Positions 7,199-36,854 of a stretch of 64,000 bases of DNA are shown here, in pieces. The stretch lies in the NCBI RefSeq assembly GCF_054482595.1, contig NZ_CM137008.1; one strand, given 5' to 3'. Position 1 is the first letter of the stretch; each line of letters opens with the position of its first letter. The notes beneath the pieces were generated by a model. That model was not told the origin of the DNA and made no database searches. It was given only the letters and a program-made list of their open reading frames with translations. A program made the translations under genes and the position numbers.

Positions 7199-8699
<1,501 letters not shown>

Positions 8700-8794
8700 T
8701 GTTGACTCCGAATGCTGGTTATCTATCCAGTGTAACAGGCGGGAAGCGATTAAAAAAGAGGCGGGTCGATGACAAAGGTTACACCGTCTGACGT

Positions 8795-8890
8795 GCTACG
8801 CCTGTCAGGCCTATTCGACTCCTGCAATGTATTGAATTTGCATAGTTTTGTAGGTCGAACAAGGCGTTCACGCCGCATCCGGCGTGAACA
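8795..8890. repeat. REP/BIME-like extragenic palindromic repeats
   Basis: gtaggtcgaacaaggcgttcacgccgcatccggcg (8852-8886) is a REP-like unit; a partial inverted copy (gcctgtcaggcctat) lies upstream. Confidence 0.6.
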
Positions 8891-8928
8891 AATTACTCTT
8901 TTTCGCACAATCCAATAGGTGCAAATTA

Positions 8929-9756
8929 TTACTTTTTCCAGAAATCATCGAAAACGGTAATTGGCGGACGGCGTTTATGTTCGGTTTTCAGATACCAGTT
9001 CTCTATTGTTCTGGCGACCTGTTCAGGTACGTTTTTCCCTTCCAGATAGTCGTCGATATTGTCATAGGTCACGCCGAGTGCCACTTCATCTGGCAGAGAA
9101 GGGCGATCATCTTCCAGATCGGCCGTTGGCGCTTTCTTATAAAGGTGTTCCGGGCAACCTAATGCCGCCAGTAACTGTTTACCCTGACGTTTGTTGAGAC
9201 GATACAGCGGATTAATGTCCGTACCGCCGTCACCATATTTAGTGAAGAATCCGGTAATGGCTTCTGCTGCATGATCGGTGCCCACCACGACACCGCTGGT
9301 CATACCCGCAATGCTATATTGTGCTTTCATCCGCTCACGCGCTTTTTCATTGCCACGGACAAAATCGCTCAGTTCAATGCCTGCTTCCCGCAATGCCTGC
9401 TCGCTAGCCAATACCGCGCCCTTGATATTAACGGTTAATACGCGATCCGGTTGAATAAAGGCAATGGCATCCTGGCAATCTTGTTCGTCGGCCTGAACAC
9501 CATAGGGCAGGCGTACGGCAATAAATTGCAGTGATTCGTTGCCAGTTTCCTGGCGCAGCTCATTAATCGCCATCTGGCACAGCTTTCCGGCAAGCGTGGA
9601 GTCCTGACCGCCGCTGATCCCGAGCACCAGTGATTTAATGAACGGATAAGTTTGCAGGTAGCTTTTCAGAAAATCGACACTACGACGAATTTCCTCTTCA
9701 GCATTAATCTGCGGTTTTGCGCCCAGCGCCTTTATTATTTGTTGTTGCAATGTCAT
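8929..9756 (-). CDS. nadE: NH3-dependent NAD+ synthetase
   Basis: 275-aa ORF with PP-loop motif SGGQDS. Confidence 0.95.
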
Positions 9757-32652: not shown

Positions 32653-32737
32653 TTCAACGCCATCAAAACATTGACTTTTATCGCCGTAGCCTTTTCAATA
32701 AAGGTCTTTTGAAGAGTACCAAAAGGTAACGCAAGCA

Positions 32738-32782
32738 ATGAATGCTGCTATTTTCCGCTTCTTTTTTTACTTTAGCACCTGA
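32738..32782 (+). CDS. pheM: pheST leader peptide
   Basis: atg aat gct gct att ttc cgc ttc ttt ttt tac ttt agc acc tga = [14 protein letters not shown], Phe-rich leader. Confidence 0.9.
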
Positions 32783-32860
32783 ATCCAGGAGGCTAGCGCG
32801 TGAGAAGAGAAACGGAAAACAGCGCCTGAAAGCCTCCCAGTGGAGGCTTTTTTTGTATGC
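32783..32860 (+). promoter_or_regulatory. pheST transcription attenuator
   Basis: terminator hairpin aagcctcccagtggaggcttttttt at 32830-32856 downstream of leader peptide. Confidence 0.85.
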
Positions 32861-36454: not shown

Positions 36455-36754
36455 ATGGCGCTTACAAAAGCTGAAATGTCAGAATATCTGTTTGATAAGC
36501 TTGGGCTTAGCAAGCGGGATGCCAAAGAACTGGTTGAACTGTTTTTCGAAGAGATCCGTCGCGCTCTGGAAAACGGCGAACAGGTGAAACTCTCTGGTTT
36601 TGGTAACTTCGATCTGCGTGATAAGAATCAACGCCCGGGACGTAACCCGAAAACGGGCGAGGATATTCCCATTACAGCACGGCGCGTGGTGACCTTCAGA
36701 CCCGGGCAGAAGTTAAAAAGCCGGGTCGAAAACGCTTCGCCCAAAGACGAGTAA
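36455..36754 (+). CDS. ihfA: integration host factor alpha subunit
   Basis: 99-aa [60 protein letters not shown]. Confidence 0.97.
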
Positions 36755-36771
36755 TCTGATCTAACTAAAAA

Positions 36772-36792
36772 GGCCGCTCTGCGGCCTTTTTT
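36772..36792 (+). terminator. ihfA rho-independent terminator
   Basis: ggccgctctgcggcc hairpin followed by tttttt. Confidence 0.8.
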
Positions 36793-36854
36793 CTTTTCAC
36801 TGTCGAAGAGTCACCGTAAAATCAACGCCATGACACTTCAGCAGAACGGATACC

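Follow-up and report, generated by a model that had tools for sequence, protein, structure and literature searches.

The spacer between nadE and cho raises the question of what kind of repeat it holds, how far this repeat extends, how it came to lie there and whether it does anything for the two genes on either side. The DNA analysed was one stretch of 64 kb (the window) and the region is part of an E. coli chromosome; the 401-nt stretch around the element is present in 5425 of the 5426 complete E. coli genomes, and in every matching genome the genes that flank it are annotated cho and nadE. When this region was aligned with K-12 MG1655 there were 3 differences in 246 nt (subtracting a window coordinate from 1832214 gives that of MG1655). 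Around the spacer the genes are, in order, spy (+), ves (+), cho (-), nadE (-), osmE (+) and chbB (+), with cho at 7812-8699 and nadE, which is upstream of cho, at 8929-9756. The initial annotation had described the repeat as lying between convergent genes, which is wrong because nadE and cho are co-directional and form a tandem pair on the - strand. The spacer of 229 nt (8700-8928) is both the 3' region of nadE and the upstream region of cho, and the mechanical open reading frames that span it, 8750-8908 (-) and 8769-8918 (+), are made up of repeat sequence. A LexA-box-like palindrome, CACTGGATAGATAACCAGCA (8713-8732, - strand), which matches the pattern CTG-N10-CAG at 8715-8730, lies just ahead of cho, in its promoter region. 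The other enterobacterial genera examined also have the CTG-N10-CAG palindrome in the part of the spacer next to cho, a pattern that fits SOS control of cho.

Two REP units, a linker and a shifted hairpin

When three published REP consensuses were scanned ungapped over the 64 kb at up to 30% mismatch, only two matches were found, a Y unit and a Z1 unit, and there were none in 20 shuffles. The search of REP consensuses that had been proposed as a check on the repeat was thus positive. Stricter scans of the window for Z1 and Z2 gave nothing further and no Z2 match. The naming of Z1 and Z2 was fixed by the REP325 sequence between yjdM and yjdN; since REP325 is Y + Z2 (Qian et al., PMC4550694), the long unit GCCTGATGCGACGC..GCGTCTTATCAGGCCTAC is Z2 and the short unit GCCTGATGCGCTACGCTTATCAGGCCTAC is Z1.

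The Y-type unit, GCCGGATGCGGCGTGAACGCCTTGTTCGACCTAC, lies at 8850-8883 on the - strand and agrees at 31 of 34 positions with the published Y-type REP consensus GCCGGATGCGGCGTGAACGCCTTATCCGGCCTAC (PMC12306157; a near-identical Y query sequence is given in PMC11208160), and no comparable match was seen in 100 dinucleotide shuffles. The REP-like palindromic unit of the initial annotation is therefore real: gtaggtcgaacaaggcgttcacgccgcatccggcg is present at 8850-8884 and it is its reverse complement that gives the match of 31/34 with 3 mismatches. A chance palindrome was considered and rejected, as the consensus matches have no counterpart in the shuffles. The 3' arm of the Y unit has been mutated from ATCCGGCC to GTTCGACC by 3 substitutions, and it is in this arm that polymorphism within the species is concentrated. 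The foot tetranucleotide CTAC is kept in the window copy (GTAG at 8850-8853 on the + strand) and is CTAT (ATAG) in K-12 MG1655. The Y unit alone still folds with 6+4 bp but at -11.4 kcal/mol compared to -21.3 kcal/mol for the consensus.

Locally, the fold of highest stability is a perfect 10-bp hairpin, GTTCACGCCG-GATG-CGGCGTGAAC, at 8866-8889 on the - strand, an inverted repeat that is formed by the left outer motif of the element (see below) together with the 5' arm of the Y unit. Its energy is -17.9 kcal/mol as RNA and -12.6 kcal/mol as DNA, and it was found in both the minimum-free-energy and the centroid folds of the spacer, which as a whole folds better than its shuffles (z = -2.8). This hairpin is predicted to be an alternative register to the canonical REP stem, and the dominant one in the window copy. 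The family consensus also holds the alternative register but with a T in place of a C, which gives a G.U pair, and so a single T-to-C change is what makes the hairpin perfect in E. coli; the locus is an example of how a decaying REP can shift the register of its stem. The upstream GTTCA that pairs in this hairpin had also been considered as a coincidental complementarity or as a fused inverted REP, and both readings were rejected because GTTCA is part of the left outer motif, which is conserved in the family. Since the hairpin begins 39 nt past the nadE stop codon, it is too distant for the ribosome stalling that has been reported for REPs lying 15 nt or less from a stop codon.

Between the Y and Z1 units lies the 35-nt L linker of BIME-1 (8815-8849, - strand), which was recognised by an Rfam match and by a shared core. 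The Rfam match is to RF02751 (ES036/CssrF) at 8807-8849 on the - strand with 42.9 bits against a gathering score of 37.6, and the core, GCAAATTCAATANATTGCAG, is common to 23 BIME loci, the window copy having the family sequence except at the one variable base of the core. Within the linker an IHF-site-like core, ATTCAATACATTG, can be read at 8825-8837 on the - strand, and it has one mismatch to what we take to be the IHF consensus, WATCAANNNNTTR. Compared to the form TAAnnnnTTGATW given in PMC8407004 it has two mismatches. An L linker with an IHF site has been described (PMC3333891) and binding of IHF to the BIME-1 linker has been stated (PMC3333891, PMC2817692), and 8825-8837 is a putative IHF site.

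That the Rfam match exceeds the gathering score could also be taken to mean that 8807-8849 on the - strand is an independent sRNA gene of the ES036/CssrF family. We find this barely credible, because the 43-nt Rfam model covers only the L linker of a BIME and another BIME locus (L093) has a linker identical to the consensus of the model, because CssrF was defined as a transcript of about 290 nt from the Shigella dacB/yhbZ spacer (PMC3071730), because a scan of 8600-9000 showed neither promoter-like nor terminator-like sites on the two strands, and because the segment lies inside the nadE 3' UTR. The Y half of the element (8853-8889) likewise gave a weak match to RF02564 (naRNA4, CssrE). These two families model pieces of BIMEs, the L linker in the case of ES036 and a Y + Z2 unit in the case of naRNA4, and their matches at this locus reflect shared repeat ancestry and not an sRNA gene. 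It follows that both models will flag BIME copies genome-wide as sRNA genes, and the nadE-cho spacer serves as an example of Rfam "sRNA" families flagging repeat fragments. Elsewhere in the window, Rfam matches at the gathering level were the Phe leader (pheM region, 32732-32856) and STnc540 (36696-36854), both of which are expected for such an E. coli region.

The Z1-type unit, GTCTGACGTGCTACGCCTGTCAGGCCTAT, is at 8786-8814 on the + strand, inverse to the Y unit, and agrees with the 29-nt Z1 consensus at 23 of 29 positions. The 6 substituted positions include the foot tetranucleotide, which is CTAC in the consensus and CTAT here (GTAG to ATAG on the complementary strand). A second inverted unit had been claimed in the initial annotation and it does exist on the opposite strand, but it is not partial as was thought; it is full-length and diverged.

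Extent of the element and its place in the BIME-1 family

In order to place the element in its family, metagenome contigs were scanned for the linker core GCAAATTCAATANATTGCAG, which gave 115 usable copies from 25 genomic loci, and the 22 loci that are independent BIME loci other than nadE-cho were used to build a profile. The family consensus reaches beyond the REPs, to ..AGATTGCTGACAAAGTGCGCTTTGTTCA on the left and ..AATTTTGCGTTTGTCATCAGTCT on the right, and the two ends are inverted repeats of each other. With nhmmer this profile gave one match in the 64-kb window, 8905..8768 on the - strand, with 111 bits and E=7.6e-34. This alignment makes the element about 138 nt long, corresponding to 1823309-1823446 in MG1655, and the 96 nt (8795-8890) assigned to it at first were too narrow. 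The profile alignment places the left outer motif ('A'-type flank), CGAAAAAGAGTAATTTGTTCA, at 8885-8905 on the - strand, where it is degenerate compared to the family consensus TGACAAAGTGCGCTTTGTTCA, and the right outer motif ('B'-type flank), GGTGTAACCTTTGTCATC, at 8768-8785 on the - strand, where the family consensus is AATTTTGCGTTTGTCATCAGTCT and the outer end is truncated. The outer motifs of the family are presumably the A and B motifs of Gilson.

On the - strand the order of the modules is left outer motif, Y REP, L linker with the IHF core, inverted Z1 REP and right outer motif. Among 53 distinct sequences with an L linker 43 were Y-L-Z1 and 5 were Y-L-Z2, the prevalence of the former being in keeping with the definition Y + L + Z1 published for BIME-1 (PMC3333891). 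At the level of sequence, the window copy has every feature that defines a Y REP and BIME-1, and it is also extragenic and highly repeated as is expected of a Y-type REP: the 96-nt element has at least 40 matches per E. coli genome in 4913 records, and the genome-wide copy count proposed as a check on the repeat was thus positive as well. Judged by its sequence, then, 8768-8905 is a single, partly decayed BIME-1 mosaic repeat, located in the nadE 3' untranslated region upstream of the cho promoter, and the BIME-like structure first noticed here can be specified as BIME-1 (Y, L linker with IHF core, Z1).

BIME-1 is a kind of repeat that has long been known, and the nadE-cho copy is an ordinary one and not new. 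The REP/BIME class has been described since 1984-1993 and has several hundred copies in E. coli, and as one among these the nadE-cho BIME alone matters little. This copy is almost certainly already catalogued in the annotation of K-12; the copy of NC_000913.3 that was used has no repeat_region features within the 50 kb examined. The nadE-cho BIME is the sole REP-consensus match in the 64-kb window and, as about 8 would be expected if some 600 REPs were spread evenly over 4.6 Mb, the region is REP-poor.

The closest known system is BIME-1, reportedly of Gilson, Bachellier and Hofnung, which also goes by the names RIP, said to be from Oppenheim 1993, and RIB, said to be from Boccard and Prentki 1993. 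The window copy resembles the known elements in having Y + L + Z1 in the same order and relative orientation, in being a single copy in a 3' UTR close behind a stop codon, and in that its outer flanking motifs can be recognised. It differs from them in that it is decayed, with 3 substitutions in the Y 3' arm, 6/29 in Z1 and outer motifs that are degenerate or truncated, and in that its predicted dominant hairpin is made of the left outer motif and the Y 5' arm and not of the canonical Y stem. BIME-2 elements such as REP325 between yjdM and yjdN, which are tandem arrays of Y + Z2 with short linkers and strong gyrase sites, share with it the Y unit and the inverted-REP design, and it is from REP325 that we take the model of a 3' UTR stabiliser and partial Rho-dependent terminator; the nadE-cho element, in contrast, has no Z2, no short S-type linker and no tandem repetition. 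Enrichment of gyrase cleavage has been reported for BIME-2 and not for BIME-1 (PMC6379681). A BIME-2 or gyrase site was rejected as a reading of this locus given the absence of Z2, the L-type linker and the single copy.

The substrates of RAYT (TnpA-REP), that is REPINs, and bacterial MITEs are similar to the element in having two inverted REPs with a spacer and, at the level of the BIME-1 family, inverted-repeat outer ends and direct repeats that flank full-length copies. Unlike in these, the Z1 foot tetranucleotide is lost, the stems are degraded and the ends are degenerate in the window copy. TnpA-REP requires the foot tetranucleotide (PMC3333891), and with the Z1 foot lost and the stems degraded the window copy is unlikely to be a current TnpA-REP substrate. 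According to a 2011 review, REPs lack the signatures of MITEs (PMC3184786).

Origin of the insertion and the fate of the nadE terminator

The nadE-cho regions of about 80 enterobacterial species were collected with Cho as the probe, and the nadE-cho synteny was conserved across these species. In many other genera the spacer is 82-140 nt long (82-125 nt in the group that includes Kosakonia, Phytobacter, Pseudescherichia and Klebsiella) and has a GC-rich hairpin with a T-run behind it, as in AGGCGGC-GCAA-GCCGCCT-CTTTTTT, with the conserved CTG-N10-CAG LexA-box-like palindrome downstream, and in a few genera there is another gene inside the spacer. In Escherichia the spacer is 195-234 nt long and contains the BIME, which among the enterobacterial genera compared was found in Escherichia only. 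As read from this comparison of spacers, the BIME was inserted behind nadE within the Escherichia lineage, at a site that in many other enterobacteria is occupied by a plain intrinsic terminator, and in E. coli it is by now fixed.

What remains of the ancestral intrinsic terminator of nadE adjoins the repeat and is not part of it: at 8752-8765 on the - strand there is the 3' arm CCCGCC followed by TCTTTTTT, and the 5' arm is gone. In many other genera GCCGCCTCTTTTTT is conserved behind a full stem and E. coli keeps just the 3' arm and the T-tract (CCCGCCTCTTTTTT). A scan of 8600-9000 for terminators gave 0 terminator-like sites and the same scan found one in an orthologous spacer (L053:2423-2450). 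This bears on whether the BIME hairpins are themselves an intrinsic (Rho-independent) terminator of nadE, for which one could point to the strong GC-rich hairpin 39 nt past the stop codon and to the T-tract at 8752-8757. The distance to this T-tract, however, is about 100 nt for the 10-bp hairpin and about 27 nt for the Z1 hairpin, so that no hairpin has a T-run behind it, and the scan that detects the terminator in the orthologous spacer detected none here. An intrinsic terminator made of BIME hairpins is therefore very improbable.

Salmonella and Citrobacter have a different hairpin, GCCGGATA...TATCCGGC, and in both the same CCGCCTCTTTTTTAATC is present but no stem adjoins it. Since the T-rich segment is conserved in Salmonella, Citrobacter and Escherichia even without the stem, it may double as the upstream part of the cho promoter. 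Salmonella and Citrobacter also lack the 5' arm of the terminator although they have no BIME, and so the order of events at the terminator may differ from the one proposed here for Escherichia. At the position of the Escherichia BIME, Salmonella (L007, L011) and Citrobacter (L008-L017) have a single REP-like hairpin, GCCGGATA...TATCCGGCC, with CGTTGT before it, which may be a REP that arose independently or what is left of the insertion seen in Escherichia.

The ortholog in Escherichia sp. E1V33 has a near-consensus BIME at the same junctions, and its Z1 unit, at the same position, is perfect (29/29). When the Z1 stems of E. coli and E1V33 were compared, one pair had changed from T-A to C-G, which is a compensatory change. 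The divergence between E. coli and E1V33 was 24/138 (0.17) in the BIME element, 89/264 (0.34) at the four-fold degenerate sites of nadE and cho, and 4/68 (0.06) in the T-tract and cho promoter region, the difference between the element and the four-fold sites having p=5e-4 by Fisher's test. The lower divergence of the element indicates either some constraint on its sequence or homogenisation by other copies, and gene conversion among copies, and not selection, could account for a divergence below that of synonymous sites.

In the divergent "E. coli" lineage E69 (L006) a clean deletion of 34 nt has taken out precisely Z1 and the last part of the linker (AGTCGAATAGGCCTGACAGGCGTAGCACGTCAGA), and the spacer retains Y, L and the right flank. 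The borders of this deletion share CAG and so slippage across the palindrome is possible. The absence of Z1 in E69 also means that the complete BIME structure is not indispensable.

What the element may do for nadE and cho

Taken as a whole, the explanation that we favour is that of a decayed BIME-1, inserted in Escherichia at a terminator site, whose hairpin and IHF roles are inferred from its family, and we give it a probability of roughly 80%. Its functional part can be stated more narrowly, namely that the element, and mainly the hairpin at 8866-8889, would protect the nadE 3' end and partly insulate the LexA-controlled cho promoter, with the linker adding an IHF site; for this narrower claim, which rests on analogy, the odds seem to us about even. 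According to this model the BIME would be transcribed within the nadE 3' UTR, where its stable hairpins would block 3'-to-5' exonucleases, the 10-bp stem at 8866-8889 most of all, and this block would set and protect the 3' end of the nadE mRNA. Transcription that reads through into the LexA-controlled cho would be attenuated by the hairpins as well, with Rho probably helping, and the linker, as DNA, would serve as a site for bending by IHF.

The model draws on REP325, which has been reported to be a partial Rho-dependent terminator and a stabiliser of the upstream mRNA, and on the higher expression of the upstream relative to the downstream gene in tandem gene pairs that contain a REP, with a median log ratio of 0.96 vs -0.09 (preprint 10.64898/2026.03.23.713779 for both). 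The protector and insulator model was proposed because nadE-cho is such a tandem pair and is without an intrinsic terminator. If it holds, the locus would be an example of how the insertion of a repeat can replace an intrinsic terminator by a protective hairpin without a U-run between tandem genes that are differently regulated, the housekeeping nadE and the SOS-controlled cho. What counts against a function is that the canonical REP stems are decaying, as the folding energy of the Y unit is halved and the foot is lost in Z1 and in the Y unit of K-12.

This decay is also what would be expected if the element were a functionally neutral relic that was inserted once, became fixed by drift or hitch-hiking and is now decaying, its hairpin and IHF effects being incidental. 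The degraded stems and the lost foot tetranucleotides speak for such a relic, as does the concentration of polymorphism within the species in the Y 3' arm, and the E69 lineage has lost the Z1 unit and yet the locus persists; moreover, vertical descent alone predicts the near-universal presence of the element in E. coli. A neutral relic does not readily account for a divergence that is about half that of four-fold sites (p=5e-4), for the compensatory T-A to C-G change in the Z1 stem or for the T-to-C change that perfects the 10-bp hairpin, and there is no other terminator-like structure in the spacer to end or protect the nadE mRNA. We regard neutrality as a serious contender that falls somewhat short of being probable, and give more weight to the protector and insulator model.

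The element could also matter as a cis-regulatory element of the cho promoter. IHF at 8825-8837 would then bend the DNA some 100 bp ahead of the -10 region and LexA box and modulate the SOS-dependent expression of cho. The core of the IHF site is intact and it lies near the conserved promoter and LexA-box region, but members of the family sit at many unrelated 3' ends, and the same LexA box and T-rich upstream region are present in genera that have no element, from which it follows that the control of cho does not need the element. We therefore consider a role of this kind improbable.

Several further observations concern the surroundings of BIME-1 copies at other loci. Many full-length copies, whose outer ends are the inverted repeats AGATTGCTGACAAAG... 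and ...TTTGTCATCAGTCT, are bracketed by a direct repeat of a GC-rich terminator hairpin of 20-24 nt that is specific to each locus, with an A-run before the left copy of the hairpin and a T-run after the right copy. When the left and right hairpins of the same locus were aligned the scores were 22, 18, 16, 12 and 11, and in alignments across loci the mean was 5.9 (sd 1.4, maximum 11). The pitA-uspB locus is polymorphic in E. coli (L086:2580-2900 compared to L204/L205:320-440): a bidirectional terminator, CGAGCGGGTCAGTTTACTGGCCCGCT, is present once in the empty allele, and in the occupied allele, which is longer by 173 bp, a copy of its hairpin stands on each side of the element. At ysgA-metE (L099:1330-1680 compared to L206:270-400) there is a single hairpin in K-12 and, in a related lineage, the element lies between two copies of the hairpin. 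Empty sites with a single hairpin were thus found at both of the further loci checked, the occupied alleles being 171-173 bp longer, and the loci with the hairpin-duplication pattern also include L189, L088, L091, L095 and L104. The flanking duplication looks like a target-site duplication that equals the whole terminator stem-loop. The mechanism by which REPs and BIMEs insert is not established (preprint 10.64898/2026.03.23.713779), and the hairpin duplications together with the empty sites could bear on the open question of how these elements spread, if they are not already in the older literature.

At nadE-cho itself, the E1V33 ortholog has the 7-nt CCCGCCT at both junctions of the element, the left copy still being a small hairpin, and it is the only one of the orthologs that shows this repeat. 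These junctions are consistent with an insertion into the nadE terminator. A more far-reaching scenario, which we put forward as speculation and think unlikely, is that full-length BIME-1 would be a miniature-transposon-like element that targets intrinsic-terminator hairpins and duplicates the whole hairpin (about 20-24 bp), and that at nadE it would have split the ancestral terminator, which was later lost, whereby the 3' end of nadE, immediately ahead of an SOS promoter, would have gone from an intrinsic terminator to REP protection and probable Rho dependence.
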